From: a bacterium | Lineage (GTDB): Bacteria; Patescibacteriota; Patescibacteriia; UBA9934; GWF2-40-263 | DNA: 64,000 bases | NCBI GenBank assembly: GCA_020057555.1 | Contig: JAGVFR010000026.1 | Location: 22,631 to 86,630, forward strand | Direction of reading: 5' to 3' | In this document: one piece after another, positions 3,222-57,197 of the stretch | Position numbering within the stretch: position 1 is the stretch's first letter | How the letters are laid out: the number at the start of each line of letters is the position of its first letter | Notes under the pieces: model-generated | Databases searched by the model: none | What the model was told of the DNA's origin: nothing | The model's input: only the letters and a program-made list of their open reading frames with translations | Position numbers and translations under genes: made by a program

Positions 3222-4251
3222 TACAAGAACATATTACGCAATCGGGGCAATTGCCATCGCGATTGCGTTTTTGTTTGCGGCTTTGTTACCTGGGTTTTCA
3301 GGAAAAATTCGTCCTTTACTTACGTCTTCAGATGGCAGTTCTGACAAAGCGCCGGTTGGCCGTCATCCATTAACTGGTTTTCCTATTTATGAGCAAATGG
3401 AACTGCCACAGGTTTTTGGAGTCATGATAGATAATCATGTTGATGCTTGGCCACAAGCTGGAATTGATAGGGCATTTCTTGTGGTTGAGGCTCCTGTGGA
3501 AGCTGGAATTTCACGTTTTCTCGCGTTTTATTCAGATGATCAGGATGTGGATAAGATTGGTCCAGTTCGTTCAGCGCGTCCGTATTTTTTGGATTGGAAC
3601 AATGAACTGGATGGTTTATATGTTCATGTTGGAGGATCAGATTCAGTTCTTGATCAAATCTCCTCTGGCGGCACTTTTGATTTGAATCAGTATTGGTTTG
3701 ACTCCTATTTTTGGCGCGCGTTAAATCGTTATGCACCACATAACGTTTACACTTCTACAAAGTTGTTGAAGCGTTATGTTGGTTTTAAAGAACAAGCGGG
3801 AGTTGCGCTTAAACGATTGTATGATATCTGGAAATTTAAAGATGCTGATCTGTCTGGTGATGCAGAACTAAAAAATATTTCTGTTACGTTTGATGCGCCT
3901 TCTTATGTAACACAATGGATTTTTGATTTAGAAACACATCGGTATTTGCGTTCACAAAGCGGTTCTGTTCATTTGGTTGAAGACAAAACACAAATATCAT
4001 CTGACAACATTGTTGTAATTGTTACAGATGTTGAAATTTTGGATTCGGTTGGACGTCGGAGTATTCGAACAACAGGAGAAGGGAAGGTGTTCTTGTTTCG
4101 CGACGGAAAACAGTTTGAGGGGATTTGGAAAAAGGAATCGGAGAGTAACAGGCTTAAGTTTTACGATTCGAACGGTAATGAATTTGAATTGAATGCTGGA
4201 GTAACGTGGATTGAAGTGATTGCTGATGAATCGGATCTGGAAGTTGATTAA
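3196..4251 (+). CDS. DUF3048-domain (YerB-like) membrane-anchored protein
   Basis: Start chosen at ATG 3196 (in frame with ORF 3169, after rplY stop); N-terminal TM helix then DNHVDAWPQAGIDRAFLVVEAPVEAGISRFLAFY block resembling DUF3048. Confidence 0.55.
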   Translation: MKKLKLKFNTRTYYAIGAIAIAIAFLFAALLPGFSGKIRPLLTSSDGSSDKAPVGRHPLTGFPIYEQMELPQVFGVMIDNHVDAWPQAGIDRAFLVVEAPVEAGISRFLAFYSDDQDVDKIGPVRSARPYFLDWNNELDGLYVHVGGSDSVLDQISSGGTFDLNQYWFDSYFWRALNRYAPHNVYTSTKLLKRYVGFKEQAGVALKRLYDIWKFKDADLSGDAELKNISVTFDAPSYVTQWIFDLETHRYLRSQSGSVHLVEDKTQISSDNIVVIVTDVEILDSVGRRSIRTTGEGKVFLFRDGKQFEGIWKKESESNRLKFYDSNGNEFELNAGVTWIEVIADESDLEVD

Positions 4252-5159
4252 AGCTCACTGATTATTACCCGATCAAGACCTTGCAGGTCTTTTTTGATTT
4301 GGGTTTTTGCGCGTGGAAATTGGTGAGATATAAGTTCAACAGCACGAGTGGTTTGTGATGGGTCGATCTCTATGAGTGTGTAAATGTATCTAGGTAAAAT
4401 ATCCCGTTTTTTATTTATTTGCTTAAACAATCGCCAATACGCCTCAAGACCGTCAGGACCTGCTTGTAATGCGTCTTTTGGTTCGTAGCGAACATCTTTT
4501 TGAAGGGCATCCATCTGGTTGTTTGTGAGATATGGGAGATTGGCGCAAATTATTAGGTATTTGAACGGATAAATTGATGAAACTTGTTGTTTTGAAGACG
4601 CACGTATTGATTCGAATAAGTCAACGATTGGCATTAATAGGTCGCCTTCTCTGAAGTCAATAAGTTCTTCTACATTATGTTTGTGAGCGTTTGTTTTTGC
4701 TACTGAAAGTGCGCGAGGGTTTATATCTACAGCCACAACCGGAATTTTTGTTTCAGATGTAAGTGTGATCGCGATTGCTCCTGACCCAGTTCCTATATCA
4801 GTAAACAGTATGTGTTCTGGATCATTAATATTTGTTGATATATCTAATGCTTCTTGAACAAGCGTTTCAGTTGCTGGACGAGGAATAAGAACAAATGAGT
4901 TAACGAAGAAATTTCTATTGTAAAATTCTTTTTCTCCGATTATGTACGCAACAGGTTCAAATGAACAACGACGTTCGATGAGCGACAATAGTCGTTCCTG
5001 TTGATGTGGTTTTAGAATGTCATTTCCATGTGCAAACAGTCGAGCGCGTGATAAATCCAAAATATACGAAAGTATAACTTCCGCATCAAGCATTGACGAC
5101 TCAACGCCAGCTTTTTTGAGCTTGTTGTTTGCCCATTGAAGAGCTTCGAGGATGGACAT
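4248..5159 (-). CDS. prmC: release factor glutamine N5-methyltransferase PrmC/HemK
   Basis: SAM-binding DIGTGSGAIAI and catalytic NLPY (NPPY-class) motifs; near prfA. Confidence 0.9.
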   Translation of the reverse strand: MSILEALQWANNKLKKAGVESSMLDAEVILSYILDLSRARLFAHGNDILKPHQQERLLSLIERRCSFEPVAYIIGEKEFYNRNFFVNSFVLIPRPATETLVQEALDISTNINDPEHILFTDIGTGSGAIAITLTSETKIPVVAVDINPRALSVAKTNAHKHNVEELIDFREGDLLMPIVDLFESIRASSKQQVSSIYPFKYLIICANLPYLTNNQMDALQKDVRYEPKDALQAGPDGLEAYWRLFKQINKKRDILPRYIYTLIEIDPSQTTRAVELISHQFPRAKTQIKKDLQGLDRVIISEL

Positions 5160-6420
5160 AGTAGGGAAGGTCGAAGAGGGCCAAGAAGACCAAAAGGTCC
5201 GAGAAGTTTCAAATGACCGAAAGGTCAGAAAGGTCGAGACAAGTATAGCAGAGTGAAAAATTTATCCATAAAAAGAAAAGCGGCGCCGAACATAGTTCGA
5301 GCGCCGTAAGAAGAGAGAGGAGAGACCGAGTTCGGACTCTCAAGATGACGTGGTTTGCCCAGTGGTAGGGAGTGGGAACGACTCTTTGCGAAACGCTGTT
5401 CAGCATTCAGGATCTCCTTACGGAGCTCACTAAACACTTCACAATATCTCACTTTAAGTCAATTTCCACTCCCGAACCACTCCTTGTCGACATGCAACGC
5501 GCTTTCGTTTGTTGCTTCGTCTAGGGAACTGTTGCTTCCACAACTGGTTTTAAGGTGATGCCCCGAAGAGCTTCTCCAAAAAACTGGTTGTTTTAGCTTG
5601 AGTTTCAGGTTTTCACCTTGACTCCAGACCTTGTAACGGTTGTCGACTTGGCTCTGCAGAGCTATCAACGCCTTTGTCACTGCTCCCTGAAGCTTGCGCT
5701 TTTAGGTAGCGGTTTGGAAGGAGAAGAAAGTCTACAGATGGACTGATCAGTGGTGAGCTTAAGCTCGTGTTTTCACTCAGGTAGAGAGTTTATCCTTTTT
5801 ACAGGACTTATCTCTATTTATTCCTTCTCATTGGTTACCCTTTGAGAACACGATCATCGTTTCACTCAAACACAGAGGTAAACTGTGTCCAAGCTTGACA
5901 ACTTTCATGGACTGATATCCTCGAGGATTAATCGAGGACCACTGGTCTTTGCCGGTTTACACCGAGTCTCAAGTTTTTGAAGCCTGCTATGTGTTTTCGA
6001 TCAGCTATCACAGCTATTTGAACTCGAGTTACCCCAAGCTCACTTCGCTCTGGTGATAAACTAACCTTGCCAGCATTTTGGCTTCGCAACTTGTCCAGCT
6101 TTGTTTACTGATTCGTAGAGCACATTCTCTTGGGAGCCCTTTCGGGTTCTTCAGAAGACGTGTCTACGACACAGTTTCCGCTGGCATGATCCGGTTTTAG
6201 ACCGGCCGGCTTTTTTAAGCCGTTTGCTTGAAGGGTTTGACCAGTTTGCACCGGTACAGCCCTTTTCGCGACCCTCCCGAAGGAGAGTTCAGCCTTCCGA
6301 AGAAGGCCTTGTCTACCAGAGCAACTTACATTGCCTTGGCTGACGGTAATGTTTAATTTACTCTTGAAAGAAACGTGTGTCAAGAGCTGTAAAATCGCTG
6401 GTTTTTGAAAAACTTGTCTA

Positions 6421-6444
6421 TTTATCCACAAAGTTGTGGATAAA
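6421..6444. promoter_or_regulatory. perfect palindromic pair of DnaA-box consensus sequences (TTATCCACA / TGTGGATAA)
   Basis: TTTATCCACAAAGTTGTGGATAAA seen directly; 9/9 match to DnaA box consensus on both arms. Confidence 0.4.
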
Positions 6445-6452
6445 TTTAAAAA

Positions 6453-6525
6453 AGAGCGGTTGTGCTATGTCTCCGTGCCAGCGGACTCCTCGCCGCTGTT
6501 CACTTCGACATAGCACAACCGCTCT
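6453..6525 (-). repeat. conserved-core hairpin element, copy 1 (core on minus strand); terminator position downstream of prfA
   Basis: 19-bp perfect stem AGAGCGGTTGTGCTATGTC/GACATAGCACAACCGCTCT around a core that is the reverse complement of GAACAGCGGCGAGGAGTCCGCTGGCACGGAGACATAG; on the prfA strand it is followed by a T-tract. Confidence 0.7.
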
Positions 6526-6537
6526 AATTAACGATCT

Positions 6538-7605
6538 TTATTGATCTAATTGCTCCGCGATTTCAGCTTCTCTTAATGCGGAAAATAATTCATCGAGGCC
6601 GCCATTCATAAAAGTGGTGATATTGTGAAAGTTTTCATTTATACGATGGTCTGTGATTCGATCTTGCGGAAAATTGTATGTTCGAATCTTTTCTGATCTG
6701 TCTCCGGTTCCGATTTGTCCTTTTCGAGCATCACCACGTTCCTTGTGGGCTTTTTCTTGTTCAAAAGCAAACACACGCGCGCGAATAATCGAAAGAGCAC
6801 GTTCTTTGTTTTGTTTTTGTGAACGTTCTTCTTGGCAAGAAGCCATTATTCCAGTTGGAATGTGTGTGATGCGTATTGCCGAGTAGGTTGTGTTTACACT
6901 CTGTCCGCCATGGCCACCTGCTGTTGTTGCCTCGATGTTTAGATCTTCCGGTTTGATTTGCACATCAATTTCTTCAACTTCAGGCAAGATCGCGACTGTT
7001 ACAGTCGATGTATGCACACGACCTTGTTTTTCCGTTTCTGGCACGCGTTGAACTCTATGAACCCCGCTTTCGTATTTGAGTCGGCTATAAACATTATGGC
7101 CTTTGATTGTCAAAATAATTTCTTTGAATCCTCCGATTTCGTTTCTGTTGGATGAAATGAGTTCTGTTTTCCATGCATGTTGTTCTGCATAAAGCATGTA
7201 CATACGCATCAGTTCTGCGGCAAAAAGCGAGGCCTCGTCTCCTCCAGCGCCGGCTCGAATTTCAACGATTGTATTTTTTTTGTCCAGAGGATCAGATGGA
7301 ATAAGCGAATGCAAGAGTTCTTTTTCAAGTAACGGGAGCTTTGCTTCCAGAGTTTCAATTTCAGTTTGCGCAAGTTCATGCATTTGTTCGTCTGTTGATT
7401 CTTTGAGTGTTTCTTTTGCTCCGTTTAAATCTACCATGACTTTTTCATATCGTTTTGCAACGTCCATGACTTCTTTTAGATCTGAATATTCTTCACTTAC
7501 TTCACGCATTTTTTTTGGATTAGAAAGAACTTCGGGTGAAGATAACTTCAATTCGAGTTCTTGGAATCGGTTTTTTGTTGATTGTAGTTTATCGAGTAAA
7601 GACAT
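6538..7605 (-). CDS. prfA: peptide chain release factor 1
   Basis: GGQ motif (AGGHGGQSVNTT) and RF1 domain layout; 355 aa. Confidence 0.95.
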   Translation of the reverse strand: MSLLDKLQSTKNRFQELELKLSSPEVLSNPKKMREVSEEYSDLKEVMDVAKRYEKVMVDLNGAKETLKESTDEQMHELAQTEIETLEAKLPLLEKELLHSLIPSDPLDKKNTIVEIRAGAGGDEASLFAAELMRMYMLYAEQHAWKTELISSNRNEIGGFKEIILTIKGHNVYSRLKYESGVHRVQRVPETEKQGRVHTSTVTVAILPEVEEIDVQIKPEDLNIEATTAGGHGGQSVNTTYSAIRITHIPTGIMASCQEERSQKQNKERALSIIRARVFAFEQEKAHKERGDARKGQIGTGDRSEKIRTYNFPQDRITDHRINENFHNITTFMNGGLDELFSALREAEIAEQLDQ

Positions 7606-31334: not shown

Positions 31335-31335
31335 A

Positions 31336-31405
31336 GGAGCGTGGAGCTGTGTCGCAGGGAACAGCGGCGAAGAGTCCGCTGGCCCGGAGACATAGCTCCA
31401 CGCTC
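31336..31405 (+). repeat. conserved-core hairpin element, copy 2; terminator position after the GH-like gene
   Basis: Stem GAGCGTGGAGCTGTGTC/GACATAGCTCCACGCTC around core GCAGGGAACAGCGGCGAAGAGTCCGCTGGCCCGGA; followed by ATTTAATTTATTTTTT. Confidence 0.7.
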
Positions 31406-31423
31406 ATTTAATTTATTTTTTGT

Positions 31424-48144: not shown

Positions 48145-48233
48145 AATCACTTTCATAGGATGGTTGTTTTCTTGTGGCGTATTGCTTAACATACTCGATA
48201 GCGTGATCTATCCGCACTAACATAGTTAACCGA

Positions 48234-48308
48234 GGATCAGTTTGCATCATGTCGTAAGGAACAACGGCGAAGAGTCCGTTGGCCCGGAGATATGGTGCAA
48301 ACTGATCC
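48234..48308 (+). repeat. conserved-core hairpin element, copy 4
   Basis: Stem GGATCAGTTTGCATCAT / ATGGTGCAAACTGATCC around core GTCGTAAGGAACAACGGCGAAGAGTCCGTTGGCCCGGAGAT. Confidence 0.7.
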
Positions 48309-48314
48309 TAGATT

Positions 48315-55148: not shown

Positions 55149-55677
55149 CAAAATAGGACCGAGTGTGGTCCGTTGTTGAGAGAGATAAGATATGAGAGAA
55201 GCGCAACAATGTGCGCGAGAGCTTTTTTATGTGAAGCTAGAAAAGGAGCTACGATCCGAGAGCACAATGCATGTGCGGTTGGAGAAACGCCGGATTGAAC
55301 CGACGCGGGTTGAGTTCGTTTGCGTACGTTTTGAGAACCATTCCTGCTTCCATTTTATTACCTCGGACTTTGCCGGCTTGGCCTGCCGGCCAGGCATCTC
55401 ATCCAAAACTTTTAGGATGAGAATATACTCTAGCAATTTTTGTTGATTTTGTCAAGCCAATTGGACTGACTAAGAAGAATTTGGAGAATTTGTTGATATT
55501 TATTAACATATTTTGTCCTGTGACCATTGACAAGCAAAAGATTATTTGATAGTTTGGTCGGTTCACTCAAGAAGTGGGCAATGAGGAAGAGAGGACATAA
55601 AACCGACCAACTCCCAATGGCCGGTTTTATCTTAGTCGAAACATGGTACATGGGTTCATGTGTGTGATAAACAAAAA

Positions 55678-55708
55678 GACGTCCTGTAAACAGGGCGTCT
55701 TTTTTTTG
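55678..55708 (+). terminator. intrinsic terminator with no upstream CDS (possible sRNA 3' end)
   Basis: GACCGTCCTG-TAAA-CAGGGCGTC hairpin followed by T8; TTGACA at 55527 and the hairpin 55554-55610 lie upstream. Confidence 0.55.
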
Positions 55709-55718
55709 GGAAAGAGCT

Positions 55719-55838
55719 ATAGCCATCACATTATAAAATGGGACTTTAGACGACTTACCTGTGGATGGGATGCGAAGGACAAGCAGACCGCCACAGGAAA
55801 GGATGGATAAATCCTATTTCATAATGTGATGGCTATAC
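55719..55838. repeat. 120-nt element bounded by perfect 17-bp terminal inverted repeats
   Basis: TATAGCCATCACATTAT ... ATAATGTGATGGCTATA; internal CCTGTGG...CCACAGG and GGAT..ATCC sub-hairpins. Confidence 0.6.
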
Positions 55839-56186
55839 AGTCTTGCGACCGCGCGGTCGTTGGACATTACATTATGATTCCGTACTTATAAAGATGAAAA
55901 ACAAGCAGGTTGCCATTTTTAATTTTTTATGGAGTATGGAACCATAATGTAATGTCCACATTCCTCTCACAGGTCTTCATTGCAAGCATGGAGCAATGGA
56001 AAACTGTGATTGGAGGGCGACGTTGGAAAGATATCCTTCGTCGCCCAAGAGTTTGCCTTCTCGGCTGGAGGCTCTGCTTCCTCTTGGCTCACCGTTTTAG
56101 GAAGGTGACTCCTTTTTGTCGCGTGTTTCAGATTGTAGTGGAATGTGTTAACTCACTTTGCCCTCCTAAATGTTTGGTTTTTTTGG

Positions 56187-57197
56187 CTACGAGAGCATGG
56201 CCTGGAGCTTGAGCTCGGCCATACGGATCACGCCAGGAACCGTCCAGTTCTTGATCGCACGGACGTCCGCGGCGGTCAGACCAGAGTTGCGAATTTTGAT
56301 AGCCGCGCGACCGAGTTGACGGTACTCGTCCTTGCTCACGCCCGGGACGATCTTGCCCTGAACGCGGCGTGGCGGACGAACCAGACCTAGACCGCATGCG
56401 AGCAAACTTCCGTCGCGCAGGGTTTCGACGTGCGAGCGAGTTTCGGCGATTCTTGCGTCAACGCGTTCTTCGGCCTCGCGCTGAAGCCGTGCTTCCTCGG
56501 TCGCTCTCTCGTCCGCGAACATATTCTCGATTGCCGCCATTGCCTCGGGCACGGTCTGCGATCCGAGCGGCAGAACGGTCTGTGCGCACTTGGGGCAGAA
56601 CGACTTCTGAAGGAGACCATGAACGGTCACCTCCTCGAGCCTCTTGACCCCGATAGCGCGCATGATTGTGCTGAACACGACCGCGACCCTTGCCTCGTTC
56701 ATCGGAACGAGTCGCAGACACTGTCCGAACTTTCCCTGACAGACCACGTGGTCCACGCCGTCCTTCGCAATGACGAGTCCCGGGGTGAACCTGACCTCGG
56801 GCTCGAGAACGGGCTCGGGCGCTGGAGCGGGTGCGGCGGGAGCCTTCTTGGTCTCGGCCTTGTGGACCTTGACCTTCGCCGGCTTCGGTGTCTCGACCTT
56901 CGGAGCCGGGGACGGGTTGGCCTCGGTCTTGGGCGAGACGATCTCCTTGGCCATGATTTCGACAGCCTCGATCGAGGAGCAATCCCTCCAGTTCTGGCCC
57001 GTGACCTCGATGATGTGCATGGCGCGACCGAGCTCGACGTGGGATGCGAGGAAGTTGATCGAGCCCTCGAAGTGACGCTCAACCACACGGCCGAGCTCTT
57101 CGAGTTCGCCAGGGAGACCGGGGCGGGAGTCGTCCTGCGGGATGATCTGAAGTCCGGGAGCCATCTGCGCGACCATGCGTAACCTCCAAAAAAGCAT
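56187..57197 (-). CDS. hypothetical protein on high-GC island (orphan, Pro/Ala/Lys-rich linker)
   Basis: Minus-frame codon positions sampled at 56761-56820: GC1 75%, GC2 40%, GC3 85%; GC switches to host-like at the stop codon; other overlapping ORFs are GC artefacts. Confidence 0.6.
   Translation of the reverse strand: MLFWRLRMVAQMAPGLQIIPQDDSRPGLPGELEELGRVVERHFEGSINFLASHVELGRAMHIIEVTGQNWRDCSSIEAVEIMAKEIVSPKTEANPSPAPKVETPKPAKVKVHKAETKKAPAAPAPAPEPVLEPEVRFTPGLVIAKDGVDHVVCQGKFGQCLRLVPMNEARVAVVFSTIMRAIGVKRLEEVTVHGLLQKSFCPKCAQTVLPLGSQTVPEAMAAIENMFADERATEEARLQREAEERVDARIAETRSHVETLRDGSLLACGLGLVRPPRRVQGKIVPGVSKDEYRQLGRAAIKIRNSGLTAADVRAIKNWTVPGVIRMAELKLQAMLS

Follow-up and report, generated by a model that had tools for sequence, protein, structure and literature searches.

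A predicted large structured non-coding RNA gene between prfA and prmC in Candidatus Uhrbacteria

Very few conserved bacterial non-coding RNAs (ncRNAs) exceed 500 nt, and RNase P, group II introns, OLE, HEARO, GOLLD, and ROOL each revealed unexpected biochemistry. GOLLD and ROOL are large ornate RNAs that assemble into RNA-only multimeric cages, and RNA-only multimers have recently been demonstrated for GOLLD, ROOL, and OLE (PMC12286853). Here we describe a locus in a 64-kb stretch of contig JAGVFR010000026.1, designated the window, whose source genome belongs to Candidatus Uhrbacteria in the candidate phyla radiation (CPR), or Patescibacteria. Between the genes prfA and prmC of this window lies a non-coding unit of about 1,080 nt (5270-6350, minus strand), which very probably belongs to a genuine, previously undescribed family of large structured ncRNA genes.

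The RNA is similar to OLE (RF01071) in exceeding 600 nt, in its multi-domain build around a conserved core, in having same-strand protein genes around it, and in its occurrence in one bacterial lineage; OLE is co-transcribed with its neighbors, as we propose below for this RNA. The two have no match in sequence or structure, however. OLE is found in Firmicutes rather than CPR bacteria, and no partner genes like oapA, oapB, or oapC lie near the RNA described here, which has its own DnaA-box promoter and varies nearly two-fold in length within its family. With GOLLD and ROOL it shares a size class, helices capped by GNRA and UUCG loops, and variable peripheral arms on a conserved core, but it has no Rfam match, shows no association with phage or prophage, and keeps a fixed chromosomal site by prmC. 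A conserved core of long-range helices, lineage-specific peripheral helices, and a strong promoter of the stable-RNA type recall RNase P RNA, from which it differs in the lack of a model match and of conserved P4 pseudoknot motifs, in being two to three times longer, and in being missing from close relatives. The RNA resembles the "large ornate" ncRNAs (OLE, GOLLD, ROOL), evolves like RNase P RNA, and belongs to none of these families.

Novelty here lies at the level of the RNA family, for which neither a curated model nor the searched literature gave a match. The models of Rfam 15, which include RNase P, tmRNA, SRP, 6S, group I and II introns, OLE, GOLLD, ROOL, HEARO, raiA, and riboswitches, found no family at gathering threshold in the whole 64-kb window. 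At E <=10, the 1.7-kb region 5000-6700 returned only miRNA, CRISPR, and snoRNA noise, and at E <=5 the RNA of seven homologous loci returned nothing. ARAGORN found no tRNA or tmRNA in the window. A first-pass annotation, made by a model from the letters of the window, had recognized no signature of RNase P, tmRNA, SRP, or group I/II introns by eye and had proposed an Rfam scan as a check. Neither the predicted 5' sequence of the transcript, AUUACCGUCAG from a start at ~6350-6347, nor its 3' end, where no CCA is conserved, is that of a tmRNA. Group II introns have a 5' GUGYG, a domain V hairpin, and usually an encoded reverse transcriptase as hallmarks; this locus matches neither the Intron_gpII nor the group-II-D1D4 models, has no ORF (open reading frame) with a Pfam match, and carries a predicted promoter and terminator of its own. 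A blastn search of phage and plasmid records found no similarity to the RNA, and searches of the literature turned up no account of an RNA like this one. The sole IMG/VR match to a pattern for the core was judged a chance match, inside a 1,024-aa ORF that by motif reading resembles a family-B DNA polymerase.

The upstream neighbor of the RNA gene is prfA (6538-7605, minus), encoding release factor 1 (RF1) with PCRF and RF-1 domains, and the gene directly downstream is prmC (4248-5159, minus), with PrmC_N and methyltransferase domains. The first-pass annotation had described the two as co-stranded, about 1.3 kb apart, and separated by DNA richer in GC than its flanks with no ORF above 108 aa, all of which we confirmed. 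The interval (5160-6537) spans 1,378 bp, and its longest ORF is 108 aa (6105-6431, minus) and begins upstream of the RNA promoter. The RNA body has a GC content of 0.475, whereas the window averages 0.411 (standard deviation 0.039), and only 3.7% of 1,080-nt segments get that high. No alternative genetic code can yield an ORF, because each of the six frames holds TAA, TAG, and TGA, with 14-25 stops per frame; recoding of UGA or UAG was thereby ruled out as a rescue. The five longest ORFs of the interval have no Pfam match. The predicted RNA starts at ~6350-6347 and ends in a U-run at 5280-5270, and the rest of the interval is made up of the prfA terminator, a regulatory region, and the prmC leader.

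The closest species representative is a metagenome-assembled genome, JACPHT010000008 (locus L002), whose RF1 is 92% identical. Between the window and L002, substitutions in the RNA number 64, 68, and 70 in the three codon phases, as against 20, 11, and 97 in prfA and 21, 11, and 102 in prmC, and 17 of 20 indels in the RNA are not multiples of three. The ORF, the third-position bias, and the prevalence of in-frame indels expected of a protein-coding gene or pseudogene are all missing from the RNA interval. This pattern of change, together with the folding results below, marks the interval as a structured ncRNA gene and not a gene remnant. The fallback reading of the first-pass annotation, a decayed gene or intron remnant, finds no support, there being no codon periodicity, no intron signature, and no Rfam intron match.

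Signals for transcription surround the RNA, beginning on the prfA side. A hairpin at the 3' end of prfA (6447-6525, minus) has a perfect 19-bp stem (6453-6471/6507-6525) and a 35-nt conserved loop followed by T6; its stem differs from that of L002 by compensatory changes, and it is likely the prfA terminator. The 32-nt core of its loop is repeated at 31359-31390 and 48259-48290, making three copies in the window. Next comes a head-to-head palindrome of DnaA boxes, TTATCCACA-N4-TGTGGATAA (6421-6445, no strand), roughly 94 to 73 nt upstream of where the RNA is predicted to start; palindrome and hairpin (6453-6525) both stand where they had been annotated as the boundary of the region. TTATCCACA is the DnaA-box consensus, and DnaA doubles as a transcription factor. 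Two perfect 9-mers, at 6422-6430 (plus) and 6435-6443 (minus), place the palindrome near the RNA promoter as a candidate operator. A perfect 8-mer, TTATCCAC or GTGGATAA, precedes the -35 element by 16-60 nt in 11/11 loci that have the RNA and in 0/3 junctions that lack it, at position -46/-47 relative to the -35 in six of the RNA loci; sites upstream of RNA promoters account for 15 of the 22 occurrences of these 8-mers in 149 kb. A nearby replication origin was considered as the reason for the boxes and ruled out, because GC skew stays positive from one end of the window to the other. By the same skew, replication would run opposite to the transcription of rpmE, prfA, the RNA, and prmC.

Closer to the start, an A/T tract, T5CA5CC (6400-6412, minus), was read from the sequence at the position of an UP element (~-63 to -51) and is kept in L004, L021, and L017. 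The predicted sigma-70-type promoter (6355-6383, minus) consists of a -35 TTGACA (6383-6378), a 17-nt spacer, and a -10 TAAATT (6360-6355), with 10 of 12 consensus matches, and a like promoter (cTTGACA-N16/17-TAAATT-like) is present in all 11 RNA loci. At the other end, a predicted intrinsic terminator, GGCGCUCGAAC-UAU-GUUCGGCGCC then CUUUUCUUUUU (5270-5306, minus), marks the point just past which similarity to L002 collapses. In the comparison with L002, the promoter hexamers, the TTATCCAC palindrome, and the terminator are retained, while the promoter spacer and flanks have diverged. A scan downstream of the 3' core covered ten of the 11 loci, L035 being left out where its sequence ends, and found a GC-rich hairpin with a T-run in seven. 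These signals mark the locus, an intergenic non-coding unit well above 500 nt, as a discrete minus-strand transcription unit with a predicted promoter of its own and, in most members, a predicted Rho-independent terminator.

Folding of the minus-strand RNA (6348-5270) gave a minimum free energy (MFE) of -422 kcal/mol, with z = -10.65 against dinucleotide shuffles; the plus strand scored z = -5.5, and three coding controls of equal length scored from -1.3 to +0.7. Homologues gave z-scores from -3.9 to -12.1, all eight examined being well below their shuffles. Numerous UUCG- and GNRA-capped helices lie along the RNA, and both examples given in the first-pass annotation of its many local stem-loops were located, each within predicted minus-strand helices. 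The conserved 5' end, AUUACCGUCA(G) (6341-6350, minus; family consensus RYRUUACSNUCAG), is apparently unpaired, and no pairing partner consistent among members was found for it. Four domains follow on the minus strand. Domain 1 (6207-6340) has five local hairpins, of which two are capped by CUUCGG loops, and a conserved AAGGG..CCGGU-GCAA-ACUGG..CCCUU element. Domain 2 (5951-6206) is closed by a long-range helix (6206-6188/5968-5951) and has a conserved CCAGC-GGAAAC ... AAACAAAGCUGG junction, with a variable arm that carries a 53-nt insertion in L002. Domain 3 (5745-5947) is closed by 5947-5938/5754-5745 and has a variable tip with several compensatory changes. Domain 4 (5357-5743), the most conserved core, contains the CCAAGUCGACAA motif (5651-5640); helix Pb, in which UCGAC (5646-5642) pairs with GUCGA (5491-5487) to close a multibranch; and a long irregular stem (5481-5361) in which AGUGG (5481-5477) pairs with CCACU (5365-5361) and GGGAGUGG (5473-5466) with CCACUCCC (5375-5368). 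A 3'-tail hairpin (5320-5341, minus) is represented in homologues by a hairpin of unrelated sequence at the same position. The 5' end and blocks of the body, identical over up to ~50 nt, are conserved between the window and L002, and the large indels between them (53, 38, and 19 nt) map to helix tips.

Homologous neighborhoods were gathered through RF1 homologues, supplemented by one genome scan and two metagenome scans. Eleven independent loci have the RNA: the window, L002, L035/L039, L004, L014, L016, L017/18, L019/L031 (a single contig), L020, L021-23, and L042. All share the same order of elements, namely the DnaA-box motif, the promoter, the start RYRUUACSNUCAG, a variable body, and a 3' core. 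The core in turn runs CCAAWUCGACAAYCG, GUCGA-N3-GGAGUGG-N-CGGGAG, and CUCCCG..CCAYUGG, and after it come the tail hairpin and usually a terminator. Lengths range from ~0.7 kb (L042, L016, L004) to ~1.16 kb (L002). The RNA adjoins prmC upstream and on the same strand in every one of the 11, and it is still next to prmC where an NTP-transferase gene (L017) or an extra ORF (L020) parts it from prfA. The same unit appears in independent NCBI, JGI, and Logan assemblies.

Other relatives lack it. L043, at a similar RF1 distance, has a prfA-prmC spacer of 199 bp, and L046-49 and L005, with the order prfA, NTP-transferase gene, prmC, have spacers too short for the RNA. Comparison of related genomes had been proposed in the first-pass annotation as another check, on the understanding that a lack of conserved structure, together with relatives whose prfA and prmC adjoin without an insert, would leave a decayed pseudogene or assembly artifact. 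The outcome is divided: L043, L046, and L005 are indeed without an insert, but many relatives carry one that is structurally conserved, with compensatory changes among the homologous inserts at the 11 loci. RNA identity is 81% at the nucleotide level where RF1 identity is 92%, and the RNA is hardly alignable where RF1 identity is <=76%. RNA divergence thus follows RF1 divergence, which argues for vertical descent with some losses, or for gain in one subclade, and the family is so far limited to one subclade of Candidatus Uhrbacteria. Searches by sequence alone fail because the primary sequence of the RNA diverges too fast; nhmmer with the single window RNA matched only L002. A first metagenome pattern (promoter plus ACRTTACCGTCRG) had no matches, and of 18 matches to a second pattern only L031 (the L019 contig), L035, and L039 were genuine.

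Conservation of the fold was examined at several depths. For three close members, RNAalifold predicted 322 pairs in four domains shut by long-range helices, with compensatory double changes at 24 pairs. Independent MFE folds of the 3' domains have the same layout in 9/9 members, in which UCGAC/GUCGA encloses a multibranch and AGUGG/CCACU and (C)GGGAG/CUCCC(G) build a long irregular stem. The core helices were aligned by anchors and a covariance model because MAFFT with RNAalifold, applied to divergent members, yielded only Pa and Pb (the CC/GG and UCGAC/GUCGA helices). A first covariance model, of the 140-nt 3' stem in three close members, matched L016 (38 bits), L019 (24.9), and L021 (21.7), and with filters off it placed L014, L020, L042, and L017 where expected. 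A second model, trained on L002, L035, L016, L019, and L021, recovered L014, L020, and L017, which were not in its training set, each where expected and with E-values of ~2e-4 to 9e-4 in 175 kb; no further copy came up in the 64-kb window and none in the RNA-less loci.

The model-based alignment (nine sense rows, 46 pairs) has 90.4% of cells paired and compensatory changes at 30 of 46 pairs, values that none of 500 shuffles reached (73.3 +/- 1.5% paired, 13.8 +/- 2.6 compensatory pairs), with slid controls at 33-50% paired. A hand alignment of three core helices in all 11 members, in which artificial ACACAC spacers and N padding leave only the paired columns as real sequence, has 97.7% of cells paired and 8 of 16 pairs compensatory, again with 0/500 shuffles as high and slid controls at 37-48%; both alignments were fitted to the structure, which inflates these counts. 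The sense strand keeps 45 of 46 pairs and the antisense 34 of 43, which fits the strand assignment. Per-row pair counts from the first model alignment gave no discrimination, because a covariance model can fit decoy hairpins. Among these few sequences, and in structure-fitted alignments, the fold is conserved among homologues with compensatory changes. What the first-pass annotation offered as one possibility, an undescribed large ncRNA, is now backed by the transcription signals, the fold z-score, the non-coding pattern of change, the 11 homologous loci, and the lack of an Rfam match.

Our preferred reading, held with moderate confidence, is that of an abundant RNA acting in trans, under DnaA-box control, and co-transcribed with prmC by read-through. 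The RNA would be a stable product and not the leader of an mRNA; its fold would be what makes it work, whether in a scaffold with proteins, in an RNA-only assembly, or as a ribozyme. DnaA, or another reader of TTATCCACA, may modulate its transcription. The RNA gene would have taken over the usual junction of a prfA-prmC operon, with prmC expressed mainly by read-through from the RNA promoter and the levels of RNA and PrmC transcriptionally coupled as a result. At L014 the T-run stops 1-2 nt before the prmC ATG, at L019 no T-run terminator is present and the ATG follows the tail hairpin by ~25 nt, and L020 is likewise without a T-run terminator; therefore, prmC mRNA in these lineages must begin at the RNA promoter. 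No strong separate prmC promoter was found in most RNA-prmC spacers. A described precedent is 6S RNA (ssrS) of E. coli, which is co-transcribed with ygfA. There, too, a stable ncRNA gene heads the unit, the downstream gene relies on the promoter of the RNA or on read-through, and the linkage is conserved without an obvious functional link. 6S RNA differs in being ~185 nt and a single long hairpin with a central bubble, whereas this RNA is four to six times larger, has four domains, and does not match the 6S model. From the junctions described above, we take the RNA and prmC to form one transcription unit with an internal leaky terminator, as 6S RNA and ygfA do.

The 110-nt prmC leader of the window (5160-5269, minus) has five GACCTTT-like repeats (5163-5235) and no Shine-Dalgarno sequence. 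It also contains a weak promoter-like TGGATA-N15-TATACT, read by eye and below the thresholds of the promoter scans, which overlaps a DnaA-box-like TTATCCATA (5262-5270, plus) just past the RNA terminator. A DnaA-box-like motif also follows the RNA terminator in L016 (~5900-5910). The prmC leaders of the window, L004 (7940-8078), and L042 (5560-5685) are all pyrimidine-rich with short repeats, TTGTCACC/TTGTCGCC in L004 and CT-rich sequence in L042, and in none of the three does a Shine-Dalgarno sequence precede the prmC ATG. In L002 (8689-8760), the position homologous to the prmC start of the window reads CTG/ATC instead of ATG, GTG, or TTG, and the first listed start comes 22 codons later; prmC there may begin at a non-canonical codon or be truncated at its N-terminus.

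CPR genomes are ~1 Mb and have shed most non-essential DNA. A non-coding gene of 0.7-1.16 kb kept in such shrunken genomes, with a near-consensus promoter, is therefore likely to be important to these uncultured episymbionts. The RNA, if real, is a defined target for cryo-electron microscopy, metatranscriptomics, and searches for ribozyme activity or ribonucleoproteins, and the DnaA-box promoter and the fixed place before prmC are two testable handles on its function. A more ambitious version is speculative and distinctly unlikely: a new class of giant ornate RNA, acting as a ribozyme, an RNA-only assembly, or a ribonucleoprotein scaffold and confined to a Uhrbacteria subclade, would be tied to replication status by a DnaA-box operator and, by heading the prmC transcript, to release-factor methylation. 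If true, an RNA would connect the cell cycle to the termination of translation in a symbiont with a minimal genome.

Several observations weigh against a trans-acting, DnaA-controlled RNA. The start, the 3' end, and the abundance of the RNA are predictions only. The family is small, 11 loci in ~8 lineages, and its divergent members gave just Pa and Pb by MAFFT and RNAalifold, with the larger pairing counts inflated as described. The box stands at varying distances from the promoter (-16 to -60), an unusual arrangement if it is a fixed operator. Since the RNA is missing at the same junction in similarly distant relatives (L005, L043, L046-49), it must be dispensable there or encoded elsewhere in those genomes. 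Finally, an invariable site before prmC, with no room for a separate promoter in some lineages, fits a leader acting in cis equally well.

The RNA would under that account be a giant 5' leader of prmC that senses a signal such as PrmC, RF1, S-adenosylmethionine, or ribosome status and sets read-through of the terminator, which we consider unlikely. Its position directly before prmC on the same strand in 11/11 loci is that of a 5' untranslated region, a terminator stands between RNA and prmC in most loci, and most spacers are without a strong independent prmC promoter; where the U-run abuts the ATG (L014), or the RNA runs into prmC without a terminator (L019), the prmC mRNA would have to start at the RNA promoter. 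Yet we know of no riboswitch or leader that comes near 0.7-1.16 kb, the RNA being several times larger, and four domains with expandable peripheral arms likewise weigh against a leader. By inspection of the tails of ten loci, no conserved antiterminator pairs the 3' core with the terminators, whose sequences are unrelated among lineages. A near-consensus promoter with an UP-like tract would be expected of an abundant stable RNA more than of an enzyme present at low levels, and L043 and L046 express prmC without the RNA. None of these points is decisive.

A selfish or formerly mobile non-coding insertion, resembling an ORF-less intron or a miniature inverted-repeat transposable element and kept because its promoter drives prmC, is very unlikely. 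The patchy occurrence among close relatives, the wide length range (0.7-1.16 kb), a GC content unlike the flanks, and a 13/14-nt inverted repeat (5258-5271/6434-6447) bracketing the unit in the window are what such an origin might leave. That repeat, however, is the DnaA-box motif (TTATCCATA and the upstream box) and is not kept in L002. The element always occupies one site in one orientation, its divergence tracks that of prfA, which implies vertical inheritance, and a single copy was found in the 64-kb window with none elsewhere in the fetched loci. Terminal repeats, target-site duplications, and multiple copies or sites, as expected of mobile elements, do not characterize it, nor do intron signatures, Rfam intron matches, or any phage, plasmid, or genuine IMG/VR match. 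The core helices, with their compensatory changes, are under strong purifying selection, which argues that the RNA has a function.

Still less probable, to the point of being extremely unlikely, is a highly diverged RNase P RNA, tmRNA, SRP RNA, 6S, OLE, GOLLD, ROOL, or HEARO that escapes the covariance models. CPR RNAs are often atypical, and GAGGAGUGGUCCGGG in L019 is superficially like GAGGAAAGUCCGGG, which we take to be the RNase P CR-I motif. But the string is not family-wide, and it forms the 5' strand of a covariation-backed hairpin rather than a P4-type pseudoknot. The permissive Rfam searches (E <=10 over 1.7 kb, E <=5 for seven homologues) and ARAGORN speak against the known families, and the RNA, unlike essential RNAs, is missing from close relatives. 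A decayed protein gene or assembly artifact, suggested by the lack of an ORF and by the metagenomic origin of the public contigs, is effectively refuted by recurrence of the unit in the independent NCBI, JGI, and Logan assemblies, by the absence of codon periodicity and of Pfam matches, by indels that are mostly not multiples of three, and by conservation of promoter, terminator, and helices.

The hairpin at the end of prfA belongs to a family of long hairpins with a conserved 32-35-nt apical core, GAACARCGGCGARGAGTCCGYTGGCMCGGAGA, found at 6453-6525 (minus), 31335-31407 (plus), and 48233-48310 (plus) and at 7109-7181 in L002. Their 18-20-bp stems are perfectly complementary yet unrelated between copies. 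All have the same sense as the gene just upstream, in the position of a 3' untranslated region or terminator, and an inner mini-hairpin, CARCGG/CCGYUG, covaries; they have no Rfam match. Possibly this hairpin family is a 3'-end RNA motif or repeat not yet described. Two other conserved-loop hairpins (CATCCTG.CAGAC ... CTGTCGAGAGCNCGCAGACAG ... GTCCACCAA) flank the RNA gene in L017, at 5800-5860 and 6990-7064, and their stems likewise differ between copies with complementarity kept. Seven contigs (L001, L003, L012, L013, L015, L044, L045) end in or just after the long perfect hairpin of prfA. These breaks do not point to an RNA that is repeated or variable, since contigs of the RNA-less type break as well and the breaks lie within the perfect hairpin; they look like an effect of the inverted repeat on the assembly graph.

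Elsewhere in the window, a poorly coding stretch of ~1 kb (55150-56186), with a hairpin of 26-bp arms (55861-55958) and a terminator-like site (~55676-55708), adjoins a GC island of ~0.60-0.62 (genome 0.41) at 56187-57197 (minus). The island holds a 336-aa ORF that has no Pfam match and was probably acquired horizontally.

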